A stretch of 64,000 nucleotides of DNA from a virus (taxonomy: Duplodnaviria; Caudoviricetes), in IMG/VR virus record IMGVR_UViG_3300029288_000116, positions 31,162 to 95,161 of that record; one strand, 5' to 3'. The notes below the pieces were generated by a model. It saw only the letters and a program-made list of their open reading frames with translations. It was not told the DNA's origin and did no database searches. The position numbers and the translations under genes are program-made. Positions 24,397 through 53,259 of the stretch are shown piece by piece (position 1 is the first letter of the stretch; each line of letters begins with the position of its first letter).

Positions 24397-25017
24397 TTAA
24401 TCGCCTCTAAGACACCCTCTTTCAATCCTAGTTTTACTTATTTTTGCTCTAGTTTCTGTGGTTACTTCATGCCCCATTTTAGATTCAGACATTTTTTTGA
24501 TGCTTTCTGGACTATGGACCCTAGTTCTACATTTAGAACAGGGTTCTTTCCTTGTATTAAATTTATGTATATTAGTTTCATATGAATGACCATTAGGACA
24601 TTTAACATTAAAAGATATTCCGTCATATTCATTATCCAAGAGAATAGATCCGGTTTGCTCTACGAGTAGTTTTAATTTTTCATAGGTTACAGTATTATGG
24701 ACAACACGTTCTTCTACAGGTATTTTATCCCAAGCAGCTTTCCTAGCTTTTGATAAGGACTTACCAGTTTTTTCTCTATATTCAGGATTTTGCCAATTTT
24801 TCTTGCTATTAGCTGAATGTTTAGCTTTGGTCTCAGGTAAATTGGCTGAGCGTTTATTTCTGCAAGTTCTACAAAGTTTCAAATCACCTTGTTTAATATA
24901 ATTTTTATATACTTGTAAAACCTCAATTTCACAATGTTCACAAGTAAACCAGACCTTCTTACCACTACCTCTGGTCAATTTTTCTAATGGTGTACCGTCT
25001 TCAGTTCTAAGTAACAT
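24397..25017 (-). CDS. Homing-endonuclease-like DNA-binding protein (Zn ribbon plus NUMOD3-like), nuclease domain missing
   Basis: GSGKKVWFTCEHC, HSPESIKKMSES, ETRAKISKTR; ends where the 57316-57930 protein continues into its HNH domain. Confidence 0.6.
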   Translation of the reverse strand: MLLRTEDGTPLEKLTRGSGKKVWFTCEHCEIEVLQVYKNYIKQGDLKLCRTCRNKRSANLPETKAKHSANSKKNWQNPEYREKTGKSLSKARKAAWDKIPVEERVVHNTVTYEKLKLLVEQTGSILLDNEYDGISFNVKCPNGHSYETNIHKFNTRKEPCSKCRTRVHSPESIKKMSESKMGHEVTTETRAKISKTRIERGCLRGD

Positions 25018-29683: not shown

Positions 29684-31246
29684 CTAATATCCACCACTTT
29701 GCTGTTGTTCAAGTTTTGGATCAGGTCTGAATCCTAGTTTTATGTCTTCAGCAAACGAGGCAGCATTCGCCTTAATATCATTTTCGTCCCATTCTAAATA
29801 TTTTCTCATTAAGAAGGACTTTCCCATTTCTGGCAAATTTGCGAGTGTGAGATAATTATTGAACTTTACTTCTCTCATTATTTGTTCTTGCTTGTCCTTA
29901 TAGAAAGAAGGCTGAATCATCTTAATGGCTATATTGTCTCTAGTTAATTCGTATTCAGCTTTAAGACCCTTGAATTCTAGATGAAGTAAAAATAGATTAA
30001 GCCACTCATTACAAAAACGATTTTGCTGCCGAGAAAGAAATGTCGCCCATTTGATCTCATCTCTGCTAATTTCTCCAGCCGGGCTTCTTGAAAATAAAAT
30101 CTCTGACTCTCTATCACTTTGCATAGCAGAAACCCTAGACATAGGATATTTAAGAGACTGATACAGCTTTCTTTGAAAGTACTTAATATCTGAGAGTTCT
30201 GTAAACCCAGCTGTAGAAGATCCACCAACAGTAGAAATATCTGAACCTCTTCCCTCGCTCGACGTACTAAGAAAAAAATTGTCCTGTATAGATAAAACAT
30301 CAGGATTTTGAGTTAATCTACCAGTACTTGGATCATAACTCTGTTTCTTCATCATAGAAGACTTTACTTTTTCAACATATTTCATGGCCTTATCTCTGGG
30401 CATATTTCCTACGTCTACCTTAAATACTAGTCTCTCGGGGGCCCTCACAATTCGGTAAATAATGATAGAAGTTTCAAGTAGTTTCAGTGTATTATACGGA
30501 ACTTTTACCTTTTCCAAATACCCAAAAATCTCAGATTTAAGTCTTCCATAAATACCATAGTCTACAAGTCCTATTTGGGCTGGTTCAAATTCAATAACAT
30601 CTTTTTCTGATGGATTTACTTTTTTACCGGAATCTGGATTAAGATATTGTCTAAACTTCTTTATTTTACCTGTTATATGATCGTATTCAAAATCCATAGT
30701 TTCTGACGGAAGTTTCTTAATTCCGATAATTCCGTTTTTTTGGTTCTTTTCATCTATTATTCTTTCATAGTAAAATCTACCATCAATAAAATAGCTTCTA
30801 AAATAATCATAACAGTTTTCATGGAGTTTAAGTTTATTATAGAATAAATCGTCGAATTCCTCTTGAAGTTTATCTATAATATTCTTATTCTTTTTAAGAT
30901 CTTCCTCTTGAATATCGAGCACTAAAACTTTGCCTTCTAGATCTTCTTGGGTAGATTCTATACAAGCATCTTCAATAACGTCTGCGATTTCTGGCATTTC
31001 AGCGATGTTTCTATAGTTTAAAATTTTTGCTCTTTCATTATCGAAAGTTTTATTTATGTAGTGGGCGTAGAACAAATTAAAACTTGAAGTTGACAAAGCC
31101 GAAAATTGTGGTAGAAACTCTAACCCCTCACCTGACATATTCTTGGCAATTTTCGGTGTTAGCGTAGTTCCGCCCTTGTTTTTAAAGGCTGCTATTGACT
31201 CATCCAACTTACTTACATAATTTTTTACGCCAGATAATATTCCCAT
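29684..31246 (-). CDS. gp20: Portal vertex protein
   Basis: IIYRIVRAPERLVFKVDVGNMP, DIKYFQRKLY, EISRDEIK. Confidence 0.97.
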   Translation of the reverse strand: MGILSGVKNYVSKLDESIAAFKNKGGTTLTPKIAKNMSGEGLEFLPQFSALSTSSFNLFYAHYINKTFDNERAKILNYRNIAEMPEIADVIEDACIESTQEDLEGKVLVLDIQEEDLKKNKNIIDKLQEEFDDLFYNKLKLHENCYDYFRSYFIDGRFYYERIIDEKNQKNGIIGIKKLPSETMDFEYDHITGKIKKFRQYLNPDSGKKVNPSEKDVIEFEPAQIGLVDYGIYGRLKSEIFGYLEKVKVPYNTLKLLETSIIIYRIVRAPERLVFKVDVGNMPRDKAMKYVEKVKSSMMKKQSYDPSTGRLTQNPDVLSIQDNFFLSTSSEGRGSDISTVGGSSTAGFTELSDIKYFQRKLYQSLKYPMSRVSAMQSDRESEILFSRSPAGEISRDEIKWATFLSRQQNRFCNEWLNLFLLHLEFKGLKAEYELTRDNIAIKMIQPSFYKDKQEQIMREVKFNNYLTLANLPEMGKSFLMRKYLEWDENDIKANAASFAEDIKLGFRPDPKLEQQQSGGY

Positions 31247-36846: not shown

Positions 36847-37245
36847 ATGATGTCTGAATATACTTTTCCAAAAGTAAATTTTGCCAATACAAACCCAACA
36901 GTTAATAGCGATTTGACTAAGGGATATATTAAGGGCTGTTTATTAATTAACGAAGCTACTGGGGATGCATTTAGATGTATAGATGATACCACTGGTGCAG
37001 CTAGATGGCTTAAGCTTGTAGAATATTTAGATCCTTTAGAGGCCATAACCACAAGTTACCAAACAGAAATAGACAATGGATATGCTGCTGGGGATGTGTT
37101 TATCACCCCACAGATATACCATCAAAAAAATACTGTAGATTATGATGTAACGATTCCTGGAAATGCTATGAGCTCTGGTCCTATTACTATAGCAGTAGGC
37201 AAAACTGTCACGGTTGGGACTAATGGAGTTTGGACAATAGTCTAA
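36847..37245 (+). CDS. Putative virion structural protein
   Basis: Late promoter; NAMSSGPITIAVGKTVTVGTNGVWTIV beta-rich tail. Confidence 0.55.
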   Translation: MMSEYTFPKVNFANTNPTVNSDLTKGYIKGCLLINEATGDAFRCIDDTTGAARWLKLVEYLDPLEAITTSYQTEIDNGYAAGDVFITPQIYHQKNTVDYDVTIPGNAMSSGPITIAVGKTVTVGTNGVWTIV

Positions 37246-37694
37246 TGAAATTCCTTAATTATTTATCTGAAGAATGGGTTACTTCTGTTAAAAACTTCAA
37301 AAGAGTTTCAGATATTTTTGTAAATCCTAATTCTAAAGAATTAAAAGAGATAGAGAGGAAGAGTTGGGGTGGGCAAGTTAGATTTTTAGCAGATTTTAAA
37401 GAAAAGAAATTATATGTATGGTCAAGTGAACTAATACATTATCTTGCTATAGTAGCATTAGCAGATGAGAACCTATTATCTTCAGAAGACTTTGATCTTG
37501 TTGGTAAATATTGTGTTCCTGGAATTGGTGTTATTATAGGTAATAAAATAAAATTTGAAGAATTTTATGATGGGGCTACACAAAGACAATTGAAGAATGT
37601 TGATTGGAGAAAAAAAGACGGGAAATGGCTCGATAGGAATTTTATCGAGCCATTTCTTAAAACTGCAGAAAAACTTATTAGTGAACTACCTTAG
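37245..37694 (+). CDS. Putative internal head protein
   Basis: MKFLNYLSEE leader. Confidence 0.55.
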   Translation: MKFLNYLSEEWVTSVKNFKRVSDIFVNPNSKELKEIERKSWGGQVRFLADFKEKKLYVWSSELIHYLAIVALADENLLSSEDFDLVGKYCVPGIGVIIGNKIKFEEFYDGATQRQLKNVDWRKKDGKWLDRNFIEPFLKTAEKLISELP

Positions 37695-47200: not shown

Positions 47201-48125
47201 TCATTTCTCCTTTTTCTTCTTAGGTTTCTTTTCCGGTTTTGGGGTGAAAAAACTCTCTATCATATCTGCTTTTCCCATTGGCTCCAGCAAAAATGAAATC
47301 TTGTGTAAATACGTCTTATCTACCATTTTATTATAATCTATCTCTATTCCAGCTTCATCGAATTCCTTAACCCATCTTAAGAAGGACATAGTATCAAATT
47401 CCCATTTATTGGGCTTAAGATATACAACCTTAACCTTCATTCCGCTACCAAGCTCTGGGACTCTCCCTTCTAGATCCAAAGACTTAACCAGTTTCCGATA
47501 ATTTAATAAACCTTTAACGTGGTATGGACAGCCCTTTAAAGCTTCTCCTTTATCATTATGTTTAGATACCGAAGTTATTCCTATGTTTAACGCTATTTCT
47601 TCAGGAAGAGAAGTTTTTATGGCTTCTATATCCCCTTCCATTTGTTGCATTAGAGCTGTGTCGTCAGAGTCTTTAAGGAGTAGTGAAATAATGTTCTTGA
47701 GTCTACTTCTTATTATTTGAGGACAAGAAGATTGGATAATTTCTAGGCCTTTTGTGTGAGTTTTATCTTTTGGGATACCCTCTTCGTCAATTACCCATAA
47801 AGTATATTTCTTTTTTGCTACAAATATACCAGACCTTGCTACTATTTCTTGTTTGAAACTTATTTTAAAATCGTGTTCTTGGCTATTATACTCGTTTAAT
47901 TGTACTTCATTATAGGCTCTATCATTAATATTATCAATGATAGTTTTAGAAATTCTTTTACAATATTTTAGCCTTTCGTCCTCGGATAAAGCGTTCCATT
48001 TTTCTAGCCCACAATGGTGCTCCACAATATTTTGGATAGATAAAAATATGGAATCGGTGTCGTCTTCAACCGTAGATAACAAAATCAGAATCTTTGTTAT
48101 CTACGTTATTTACCTCCTTATTCAT
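47201..48125 (-). CDS. gp43: DNA polymerase B, C-terminal subunit; frame interrupted at YG/DTDS
   Basis: Mini-ORF MNKEVNNVDNKDSDFVIYG* (48125-48066), then DTDSIF...AKKKY...KGLEIIQS in the +1 frame. Confidence 0.85.
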
Positions 48126-49840
48126 GATTTTAGCTCCTTTAGTATAGAGACAAGTTCTTCATTAGGAGTATTACCGAGATCATTAACAAATTTCATTCCT
48201 CTACGTAATGTATGTCTTCCACAAGATGTAATAGCCTCAGCAATATCAAGATTAAAATAGCGAGAAAAAATTACGGAAAAAGCACCGTAAATACCGTTTA
48301 GAGTTGTCTTTACTGCTATTTGGGAATTTTTCATTTGTATAGCTTTAATTTTTTTTCCGGCTTTAGAGTATTCCATCATCTTGTCTTTTATTTCCTTTCG
48401 GTGTGCAAATAGGGCTCGTTCTACGTCTGCAAAACATCCAGACGGTCTACTCTTAAATATAACACCTATGGGAGATATTGTTAACAAACCAGCTCTAACA
48501 GAATTATTAAAGGCTTTAAGATATTTTCCTGAAACCCATTTTTCTGCTTTTGTATCAAAACACCTCATAGTGAATTCTGGAAATTCTTTTTTTATAGTAA
48601 AATTAATAATTTCGTCTTCTGAAAAATTCATTATCCTTCCATAATATGATTCATTAGACATATTTAATGTGATAATATGGCTAGGATAACTTGAGGTAAT
48701 ATCGGCGTCGATTACCCACTCATATTTTCCTACTAAAGGTTCTTTTACAATTGCAGCTTCAAAGTCTCTTGTGGACCCTTTGGGCATCGCTGGGGCGCAA
48801 AGGTTATGACGTCTAAGATAGGTTAACATCGCCGCTTCGATTAGTGGGGTCTGTTTATCGCAGAACTTCATGGGACATTTACTGAATAATGAAATACCTT
48901 GTACGAGTTTGATAAAACCCTTCTTTTCTTCTAGCTGTTGTACTCGCCTCACATCTATTTTATTATATTCTACATAAGCATTCCAGTCTTTATCATAAAG
49001 TTCCTTAAGATCTTCAGCGATTTTACTATAATCAAATTTTCCGGCTCCTAACTCAAAGTTTGAGACGAATTGAAGAGAATACGATTCAAGATTTTCTGCA
49101 GAATATAGCTTATAAAGTTCCATGTAATCAAGAATTGATATTCCGGCAAGATCTATGTTTAGGTCTCCTCCTGTTTTTGTCCAAACATTTACATTTCCTG
49201 CCGGAGACATAGCATTATAAATTCTTGTATTTTTACCAAAAAGATTTATAATACGATTGTATAAATACGGAAGATCAAATCCTCTAATATTCCAACCACT
49301 TAATACATCACAAGGATACCTTTTCATAAAGCCTAAAAACTTTTGTAGTAGTTCTTTTTCAGTAGCACAATAATAGTAACTATCTTCAAGGTTGGATTTG
49401 AAAGGCTTAAGACCGAATGTTGTTATTTTTCCTGAGGAATGATCGCAAATAGAAATTAATGATACTGGGTCTTCTGCTACACTGGGTTTTGGAAACCCCA
49501 ACTGAGGACGGTGGATTTCCAAATCCAAATAGTATATTTTAAGAGTTGGGGCTCTTTCAGCCATTTCGTCATCAGATATTCCATAATACCTATCAACTAG
49601 GAATTGGATTTCAGGTTTTATTTTGTCTTCAAAAGCGCTTTGTTGTTTAGTAAAATCTTTGTAGTCTTTATATGTCTTGAAGGTCTTTTTTACTACAAAA
49701 TCTCCATACATAGACTTAATATCTGATTTGTTTGTTTTAAGAAACACGTATGGAACCCAATCTATGGGTTCTACAGGAAGATCTACTCCATCAACCTGTT
49801 CCCATAAATGTATTTGTCCCTTAAAATAATCGAACCACAC
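48122..49840 (-). CDS. gp43: DNA polymerase B, N-terminal subunit (exonuclease plus motifs A and B)
   Basis: DLE, GWNIRGFDLPY, YNKIDV, DITSSYP, KTTLNGIYG. Confidence 0.95.
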   Translation of the reverse strand: MWFDYFKGQIHLWEQVDGVDLPVEPIDWVPYVFLKTNKSDIKSMYGDFVVKKTFKTYKDYKDFTKQQSAFEDKIKPEIQFLVDRYYGISDDEMAERAPTLKIYYLDLEIHRPQLGFPKPSVAEDPVSLISICDHSSGKITTFGLKPFKSNLEDSYYYCATEKELLQKFLGFMKRYPCDVLSGWNIRGFDLPYLYNRIINLFGKNTRIYNAMSPAGNVNVWTKTGGDLNIDLAGISILDYMELYKLYSAENLESYSLQFVSNFELGAGKFDYSKIAEDLKELYDKDWNAYVEYNKIDVRRVQQLEEKKGFIKLVQGISLFSKCPMKFCDKQTPLIEAAMLTYLRRHNLCAPAMPKGSTRDFEAAIVKEPLVGKYEWVIDADITSSYPSHIITLNMSNESYYGRIMNFSEDEIINFTIKKEFPEFTMRCFDTKAEKWVSGKYLKAFNNSVRAGLLTISPIGVIFKSRPSGCFADVERALFAHRKEIKDKMMEYSKAGKKIKAIQMKNSQIAVKTTLNGIYGAFSVIFSRYFNLDIAEAITSCGRHTLRRGMKFVNDLGNTPNEELVSILKELKS

Positions 49841-53166: not shown

Positions 53167-53188
53167 TTATAAACTCCTTAGAATTTGG

Positions 53189-53259
53189 TGGAGCGGGGGC
53201 CGGTGATGAAACCGGATTTCCAGTCGGGAAGACCGTATTTTACTTTAAATTACCCCCGC
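53189..53259 (-). tRNA. Atypical tRNA-Gly-like gene (anticodon TCC or CCC ambiguous)
   Basis: Acceptor GCGGGGG/CCCCCGC, U73, CCA followed by a second CCA; aberrant D, anticodon and T loops. Confidence 0.6.

Follow-up and report, generated by a model that had tools for sequence, protein, structure and literature searches.

Programmed translational bypassing in phages is known only from gene 60 of T4 and its topoisomerase homologues. The gene 60 bypass is part of the homing-endonuclease cassette mobA (PMC5009743; Manning and Atkins, bioRxiv 10.1101/2022.08.31.505936), and cassettes homologous to it have been reported in topoisomerase genes only. Over short distances, stop-hops and shifts of +2, +5 and +6 were described for synthetic constructs in E. 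coli (Weiss et al. 1987, cited in PMC5009743), and a 2016 review of recoding stated that natural counterparts of such short bypasses had long been presumed but were not known (PMC5009743). Inserts in essential genes that are skipped by the ribosome also exist as the mitochondrial byp elements of Magnusiomyces capitatus (Lang 2014; Nosek 2015, cited in PMC5009743). In full-text literature searches, we came across no account of bypassing in a DNA polymerase. Here, we analyze the T4 gp43-like family-B DNA polymerase genes on the minus strand of a 64,000-nucleotide (nt) stretch of a Caudoviricetes virus (IMG/VR record IMGVR_UViG_3300029288_000116, positions 31,162 to 95,161; this whole stretch is called the window below). 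Their catalytic motif C is interrupted by a 7-nt gap that begins with a stop codon. Judged from the nucleotide sequence and its relatives, programmed recoding very likely joins the two sides of this break. The best single reading, and in our estimation a probable one, is a hop over all 7 nt at a site derived from a homing-endonuclease cassette.

The polymerase is encoded in two cistrons (all coordinates of this locus refer to the minus strand of the window). The upstream gene polA (48122..49840) encodes an N-terminal subunit of 572 amino acids with the exonuclease domain and motifs A and B (Pfam PF03104, PF00136) and ends with KELKS-TGA, the stop codon being at 48124-48122. The downstream gene polB (47201..48061) encodes a C-terminal subunit of 286 amino acids plus stop and opens directly at the catalytic DTDS (48061-48050, GAC ACC GAT TCC). 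Its first residue aligns with D621 of motif C in RB69 gp43 chains and with residue 618 in the best-scoring chain of 898 amino acids (9e5y). This is the layout of a two-cistron T4-type family-B polymerase, with the exonuclease and motifs A and B on one gene, motif C and the thumb on the next, and intact homologues elsewhere. A tblastn search with polB matched 2432 phage DNA polymerases. The nearest cultured phages are about 30% identical at the protein level, and megablast of the polymerase gene against 50,697 phage records gave no match.

Between polA and polB lies a mini open reading frame (mini-ORF, 48066..48125), which serves as a leader of 19 codons, MNKEVNNVDNKDSDFVIYG, followed by TGA (48068-48066). 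Its ATG at 48125 overlaps the polA stop as ATGA and is preceded at a distance of 8 nt by the Shine-Dalgarno (SD) sequence AAGGAG (48134..48139). The last six codons encode DFVIYG, the conserved strand D-x-[VI]-x-Y-x of motif C. The final sense codon, GGT (48069..48071), is the proposed take-off codon and encodes the Gly of YG, the residue position directly before DTDS in relatives. The 7-nt gap TGAAGAC (48062..48068) begins with the stop codon and ends with GAC (48064-48062), the proposed landing codon. Whereas polA and DTDS share one frame, with TGA, TAA and TAG between them, the mini-ORF alone is in another; the DTDS frame is +1 relative to it, and removal of 48068-48062 yields DFVIYGDTDSIF. 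A hairpin (48071..48105) ends at the take-off codon. It is composed of a 5' arm (48105-48093), a loop (48092-48084) and a 3' arm (48083-48071) made up of the codons for FVIY and the first base of the Gly codon. The stem is perfect over 13 base pairs (bp); RNAfold extends it to 14 bp at -15.8 kcal/mol (z = -4.4). Finally, mini-ORF codons 3-5 contain an internal SD-like element, AAGGAGGT (48112..48119), 6 nt 5' of the hairpin; with one further base at its 5' side it reads TAAGGAGGT (48120-48112). Every sequence statement of the initial annotation was confirmed, including its claim that deleting the gap restores the motif, which was confirmed by translation. Reading TGA as Trp does not restore the motif and was rejected.

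We collected about 470 loci from IMG/VR, JGI metagenomes, GTDB genomes, ENA, NCBI and Logan and classified the junction in each of them (fetched loci of relatives are given as L numbers). Among 120 polA homologues, 56 encode about 550-594 amino acids and share the same end point, and 64 are full length. Many lineages are cleanly split, for example L003, where ATGA is followed by MKDFVIAGDTDS. The gapped design, consisting of a leader of 13-26 codons, the family strand, a stop, a gap and DTDS, was found in 15 sequences that represent 14 lineages, the window and its closest relative being counted as one. These lineages were drawn from ENA, NCBI, JGI, Logan and IMG/VR assemblies. In all 14 the leader ends with D-x-[VI]-x-Y-[GISC] and a stop codon (TGA, TAG or TAA; TGA in the window) directly follows the take-off codon, and an equivalent SD sequence precedes the mini-ORF ATG in every gapped lineage examined for it. 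Gap lengths of 2, 5, 7, 8, 10 and 11 nt occur: TA (2 nt), TAGGT (5 nt), TGAAGAC (window and closest relative), TGAAATA, TGAATTT and TGAAGGC (7 nt), TGACGTTT, TGACGATT and TGAAGATA (8 nt), TGAGTGGCTT and TGACGGAGTT (10 nt), and TGACGGAAGTT, TAAAAAAAAGC and TGAATAAATTT (11 nt). In 62 of 62 full-length relatives, D-x-[VI]-x-Y-x is joined directly to DTDS with no residue between them, so that the canonical motif comes back only when the gap is skipped in its entirety.

The closest relative, L002, comes from a different sample (ENA sample ERZ27247773) and repeats the ATG-leader-GGT-TGAAGAC-GAC arrangement with a gap identical in 7 of 7 positions, at 83% amino acid identity in polA and 78% nucleotide identity. 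Synonymous sites are near saturation between the two (proportion of synonymous differences, pS, 0.69 in polA and 0.84 in polB), whereas replacement changes are rare (dN/dS 0.05 in polA; proportion of replacement differences, pN, 0.13 in polB), so that both polA and polB are functional genes. The gene is the sole family-B polymerase hit in an assembly of 1.16 Mb rated 99.7% complete, in which no family-A polymerase (PF00476) was hit either; a bacterial-type DnaE sits on another contig (C4). The 95-kb T4-like contig of the polymerase (C2) may be a binned phage and not part of the cell's genome. Within the 64-kb window only two perfect hairpins of at least 13 bp with separated arms exist, the second being an intrinsic terminator, and a scan of the whole 95-kb contig for another hairpin-plus-stop in a broken gene returned terminators and out-of-frame coincidences only. 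This rarity, together with the recurrence in independent assemblies, excludes a chance origin of the hairpin-stop-gap arrangement.

To compare the hairpin among relatives, the 48 nt ending at the take-off codon were folded for each sequence separately, with positions counted from the take-off codon; 76 distinct ungapped alleles, folded over the equivalent region, served as control. A hairpin of 9-17 bp and -12.5 to -21.6 kcal/mol is present in 13 of the 14 gapped lineages, and in these 13 the end of the stem lies 0-3 nt from the end of the take-off codon. The exception is L070, which has a 2-nt gap and a weak fold of -8.2 kcal/mol. A strong hairpin is absent from the ungapped controls, which fold at -4.4 ± 2.2 kcal/mol with a minimum of -10.5 kcal/mol. 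The stem of L002 differs from that of the window by one compensatory change from G-C to A-T (GTA to ATA in the 5' arm, TAC to TAT in the 3' arm), and across lineages several stem positions are occupied by three to five types of pairs. The gap conserved in L002, its counterparts in 13 further lineages with other hairpin sequences and gap lengths, and the covarying hairpin thus support the translational bypass that the initial annotation had put forward. Counted on the sense strand, stem pairs comprise 198 Watson-Crick and 15 G-U pairs, a composition that fits RNA rather than DNA structure. The variable N-terminal part of the leader tracks the 5' arm of the hairpin, while the 3' arm is the conserved coding strand; as the 5' arm falls into an otherwise unconserved N-terminal extension, RNA is what is conserved there. 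RNAalifold returned no pairs on an ungapped MAFFT alignment of 11 hairpins, in which unequal loop lengths shift the 5' arms out of register. Besides the ordinary SD sequence before the ATG, 13 of the 15 gapped sequences, belonging to 12 of 14 lineages, have GGAG, GAGG or AGGA no more than 24 nt past the ATG, and this SD-like element lies 4-9 nt 5' of the hairpin wherever the spacing was measured.

The three bases directly before DTDS resemble the take-off codon. In the 15 gapped sequences together, 30 of these 45 bases agree with it, and in a test on 10 lineages 20 of 30 bases matched compared to 8.7 ± 2.5 under the null model (0 of 20000 shuffles). By lineage, the match is exact in four, two of three bases in seven and one of three in three. 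The exact pairs are ATA/ATA at +2 in L070, GGT/GGT at +5 in L005 (GGT TA GGT), ATA/ATA at +7 in L050 and ATT/ATT at +8 in L458. Furthermore, TGACGATT, TGACGGAGTT and TGACGGAAGTT are related gaps with differences of 1-3 nt, by which the frame change needed switches between +1 and +2; the gap is therefore apparently not read in triplets.

Free-standing endonuclease genes are located between polA and the leader or polB in many relatives and belong to three families. GIY-YIG enzymes were found in L070, which has a gap, and in the cleanly split L080, and an HNH enzyme in the cleanly split L008. PD-(D/E)xK-like proteins with treble-clef and CapR modules occur in L014 and L030 (clean split) as well as in L072, L100 and L334 (gap), and one with only a faint family match in L336 (clean split). 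Neither the window nor L002, with their ATGA overlap, carries an endonuclease gene at the junction. Homologues of the L008 HNH endonuclease, and a stretch that weakly resembles the N-terminal module of the L100 endonuclease, are present elsewhere in the assembly (G000), on the phage contig C2 (433-1074, and about 24457-24690 of the window) and on another contig (C7, 41782-42393). The phage thus still carries free-standing endonuclease genes, none of them at the polymerase junction. In a quick tree of polA, the gapped state is scattered among intact and cleanly split alleles, and well-supported branches force at least five changes. Compared with an intact allele of 85% identity, L048 has a replaced segment of 258 nt, which runs from the end of polA through the leader and the gap into the start of polB. 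By analogy with the mobA/gene 60 element, the gap may shield the allele from cleavage.

According to the reading we favor, a homing-endonuclease cassette would have split the polymerase gene just 5' of motif C. With the endonuclease gene since lost in the lineage of the window, it would have left behind a short leader ORF re-encoding DFVIYG, a stop and 7 untranslated bases before the resident DTDS. The ribosome would start at ATG 48125, coupled to the termination of polA translation, and would unwind the hairpin until GGT occupies the P site and UGA the A site. If termination is slow at this point, the 5' arm, by then outside the ribosome, could re-pair with the 3' arm and draw mRNA from the exit channel. 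The peptidyl-tRNA-Gly would detach from GGT, the mRNA would slide by 7 nt and decoding would restart at GAC 48061, resulting in a single polB chain with the sequence ...DFVIYG-DTDSIF.... This slide would be driven or positioned by the hairpin and the SD-like element. On balance, we regard the gapped loci as likely members of a second natural bypass family besides gene 60, formed by mobile endonuclease-borne cassettes that place 2-11 untranslated bases in the catalytic motif of a polymerase. To a similar degree it seems likely that in this family the ribosome is slid over a short defined distance by the hairpin, which ends at the take-off codon, together with the SD-like element located 4-9 nt in front of that hairpin, and that a matched landing codon would be unneeded for this.

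Several traits are shared with gene 60. As in gene 60, the interrupted gene is essential for replication, and a homing-endonuclease cassette would be what divided it; the downstream ORF would then open with a leader that came with the cassette and encodes anew the conserved residues displaced by it. In both cases, a stop codon stands immediately after the take-off codon, the gap is, or in the polymerase would be, left untranslated, and decoding resumes, or would resume, at a catalytic metal-binding motif, a protein that is contiguous in homologues being encoded by ORFs in different frames. The polymerase loci also represent the same decay series as mobA/gene 60, with endonuclease and gap, gap alone or split alone, and the endonuclease family swaps in both, including VSR-like/PD-(D/E)xK and GIY-YIG enzymes. 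On the other hand, the host gene encodes a DNA polymerase instead of a topoisomerase, and no resemblance of the cassettes was seen by inspection without formal alignment. With 2-11 nt, compared to 50 nt in gene 60 (20 nt in one clade), the polymerase gap has no room for a take-off stem-loop or an internal SD of the gene 60 type. In place of a stem-loop in which the take-off codon and the gap's 5' portion take part, the sole conserved structure is the hairpin that lies 5' of the take-off codon and ends there, whereas the 5' stem-loop of gene 60 is not conserved. The mini-SD of gene 60 is located in the gap, about 6 nt 5' of its landing codon; here AAGGAGGT lies about 41 nt upstream. The leader of 13-26 codons leaves no place for a long nascent-peptide signal, and landing codons are often near-matches, with one of three bases matching in the window, where gene 60 has a landing codon that matches the one at take-off. 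As several defining features of gene 60 are lacking, the polymerase element would represent a separate form of translational bypassing and not a member of the gene 60 family.

The synthetic stop-hops come close in geometry. There, the peptidyl-tRNA goes from the codon before the stop to a matching codon a few bases further on, as L070, L005, L050 and L458 would permit. However, the synthetic events are unprogrammed and of low efficiency, while the polymerase event would be needed for an essential enzyme and is accompanied by a conserved hairpin and an SD-like element. The frameshift site of prfB, encoding release factor 2, likewise has a stop in the A site and an SD-like element upstream, and in the window a +1 change is needed as well. 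In prfB, though, the P-site codon re-pairs in the +1 frame and the SD element is 3 nt upstream; the polymerase site has no slippery codon of the CUU-U type, its SD-like element is about 41 nt away, half of the related gaps need +2, and a simple shift would not restore the motif. Like the polymerase cassettes, the byp elements are numerous short mobile inserts in essential genes that are skipped by the ribosome and tolerate mismatches between take-off and landing codons, but they measure 27-55 nt, are mitochondrial and show no link to homing endonucleases or SD elements. Another split polymerase is known from the Aeromonas phages 25 and 44RR, in which gene 43 is divided into 43A and 43B (Petrov et al. 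2010, via PMC2988022). This is also a T4-type family-B polymerase whose two cistrons assemble into an active enzyme, and a seg-type endonuclease is associated with the split of phage 25. In 44RR, however, the split follows residue 498, the spacer is 49 nt long and 43B has an ordinary SD and ATG, with no gap in the motif. We therefore rejected the 44RR split as an instance of the same element, as it is at another site and has no gap.

Some observations weigh against the hop. In the window, the landing codon GAC agrees with GGT in the first base only (in two of three bases with GGC), and no GGN occurs downstream, so that landing would need to be set by something besides cognate re-pairing. The initial annotation had already cautioned that a matched landing codon is lacking, and this reservation stands, the exact pairs being confined to the four other lineages. 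Moreover, the match of landing codons may be a remnant of the resident codon: between L050 and its cleanly split sister L027, homology starts again close to the landing codon, 3 nt in front of DTDS, and part of the landing match may thus be ancestry. The gap length is a multiple of three in none of the 14 lineages. The corresponding chance of (2/3)^14 = 0.003 assumes independent lineages, which these are not, several gaps being clearly related. A hop that is blind to length does not predict that multiples of three are missing, but a frameshift does. Finally, the pulling step is a conjecture because the 3' arm lies inside the ribosome at take-off.

The main rival is a programmed +1 frameshift at GGT-UGA (+2 where the gap length is 2 modulo 3) with decoding of the remaining gap, which we consider unlikely. 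It would produce ...VIYG-ED-DTDS in the window, or YG-D-DTDS in the case of landing at +4. Apart from explaining the lengths of the gaps, it would make use of a classic +1 context, a short leader that brings a stop into the A site as in prfB (PMC5009743), and the DTDS frame is free of stops inside every gap. The poor re-pairing of tRNA-Gly on GAC speaks for it too, although re-pairing from GGU to GUU is also poor (two of three bases). A frameshift would add 0-3 unconserved residues (ED, EWL, EI, TEV, DGV, TF, KKS, G) before the catalytic Asp, a point at which none of the 62 full-length relatives and none of the 76 ungapped alleles has an inserted residue. The differences of 1-3 nt between related gaps would change both the type of shift and the residues inserted. 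Four lineages repeat the take-off codon exactly in the three bases that precede DTDS, and the distance of the SD-like element from the shift site is about 41 nt as opposed to 3 nt in prfB. It is improbable that no recoding takes place, in which case a 19-amino-acid peptide would be released and polB made by termination-reinitiation or internal initiation, so that the enzyme would consist of three pieces or miss a strand. Starts of this kind exist: a TTG at 48082, 21 nt before D in the DTDS frame, would yield MLSTVEDDTDS, TTG or ATG is available in 11 of 14 lineages, and gene callers annotate polB from such starts. Three lineages (L005, L070 and L100) have no canonical start in the DTDS frame, and where candidate starts exist they lie inside the 3' arm and would exchange the conserved DFVIYG for out-of-frame residues, in agreement with the initial annotation, according to which a start at MLSTVEDDTDS would lose the conserved strand. 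Meanwhile, 14 of 14 lineages retain exactly the family consensus D-x-[VI]-x-Y-[GISC] in the mini-ORF. The SD-like element and the hairpin could in principle form a split ribosome-binding site, but there is no in-frame start codon 3' of the hairpin, and initiation past the hairpin was rejected for this reason.

The source of the locus is a single metagenome-derived contig, and the initial annotation had left room for an assembly error or a collapsed insertion. This is excluded by L002, an independent assembly with the identical gap at 78% nucleotide identity, and by the other gapped lineages, which bring the same design from five sources (ENA, NCBI, JGI, Logan, IMG/VR) to 14 lineages. Strong purifying selection on both subunits and the presence of only this polymerase on the phage contig argue against a pseudogene. 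Taken together, a dead or mis-assembled gene, whether by sequencing error, collapse or decay, is very improbable. We give still less credit to removal of the 7 nt from the RNA, be it as a mini-intron, by archaeal-type bulge-helix-bulge splicing or by editing, or to their omission by polymerase slippage. With 2-11 nt the gaps are far smaller than any self-splicing intron, they lie 3' of the hairpin and not within a bulge-helix-bulge, and most of them have no homopolymer runs. An Rfam search of 46-55 kb gave no match, and the DnaE in the assembly (on the other contig) is of the bacterial type.

If the hop over the gap is true, it would be the long-presumed natural bypass over a short distance, with a new geometry of stimulators. 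The family of 2-11 nt gaps would provide small natural variants with which to dissect how mRNA structure moves a ribosome without decoding. It would also be a case of selfish endonuclease cassettes that are able to protect their insertion site while sparing the catalytic motif. For annotation, the loci are a warning, since pipelines call such polymerases truncated, use false TTG or ATG starts, or change the genetic code to read through.

Searches for further gapped loci met with a trap. A pattern scan for TACATTTGA-N(0-11)-GAYACNGAYTC was swamped by an unrelated gene encoding GTFDLDTDS in frame. At the IMG/VR loci L337-L416, this very common type of phage gene encodes ...GTFDLDTDSNGRWSVEKFKGL..., and its out-of-frame DNA mimics TAC ATT TGA NNNN GAY ACN GAY TC. 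Restricted to longer gaps, the scan returned three further real variants and no polymerase gap of 9 or 12 nt. In IMG/VR, a DNA pattern for the gap type of the window had no match, and an exact-peptide scan gave no close relatives of its polB. A word-based polB search yielded 19 proteins only, and its odd members (L328-L332) proved to be something else.

Motif C is apparently targeted by inteins besides endonuclease cassettes. In L014 (5257-6603) an insertion that is an intein by resemblance only follows directly after DTDS (DTDS-VAGKSIIV...), and the protein P0126 (DTDS-VVGNSII...) has a precomputed Pfam match to the intein family PF14890. In L329 (480-560), L330 (200-280) and L332 (1300-1370), a small ORF bears the C-terminal motif of an intein (...HNFFANGILVHNS), and the polB C-extein (GFVD/GxQKFIED...) comes next, in the +1 frame: CAT AAT TCT C GGA TTT GTT. 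The same offset of 1 nt is present in two diverged contigs of this kind, for which the gene caller required TGA to be read as Trp; it may be a further recoding site or a split-intein arrangement. L328 (640-700) has a clean polB start (MSIYDTPEIKEDYVLYIDTDS...) and a +1 frame change after FLENN with no stop or hairpin. The gene caller used TAG as Gln; this is probably an assembly error in a contig of low coverage.

At 53185-53258 on the minus strand, the window encodes a tRNA-like RNA with a Gly-type acceptor stem and a CCACCA end, on which ARAGORN and Rfam make no call. Its anticodon loop TCTTCCCGA contains UCC with C at position 37 and is possibly a loop of 5 nt. The RNA is kept in L002 (1455-1530), where the acceptor, anticodon and T stems show compensatory changes and the anticodon loop is invariant. 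The window and L002 both use the Gly codon GGT for take-off, but a tie between this RNA and the hop is speculation. The second perfect hairpin of the window, 14 bp at 37622-37656, is followed by a T run on the minus strand and forms the intrinsic terminator of the gene at 37960-37691; it is embedded in the 3' end of a convergent plus-strand ORF (37230-37694).

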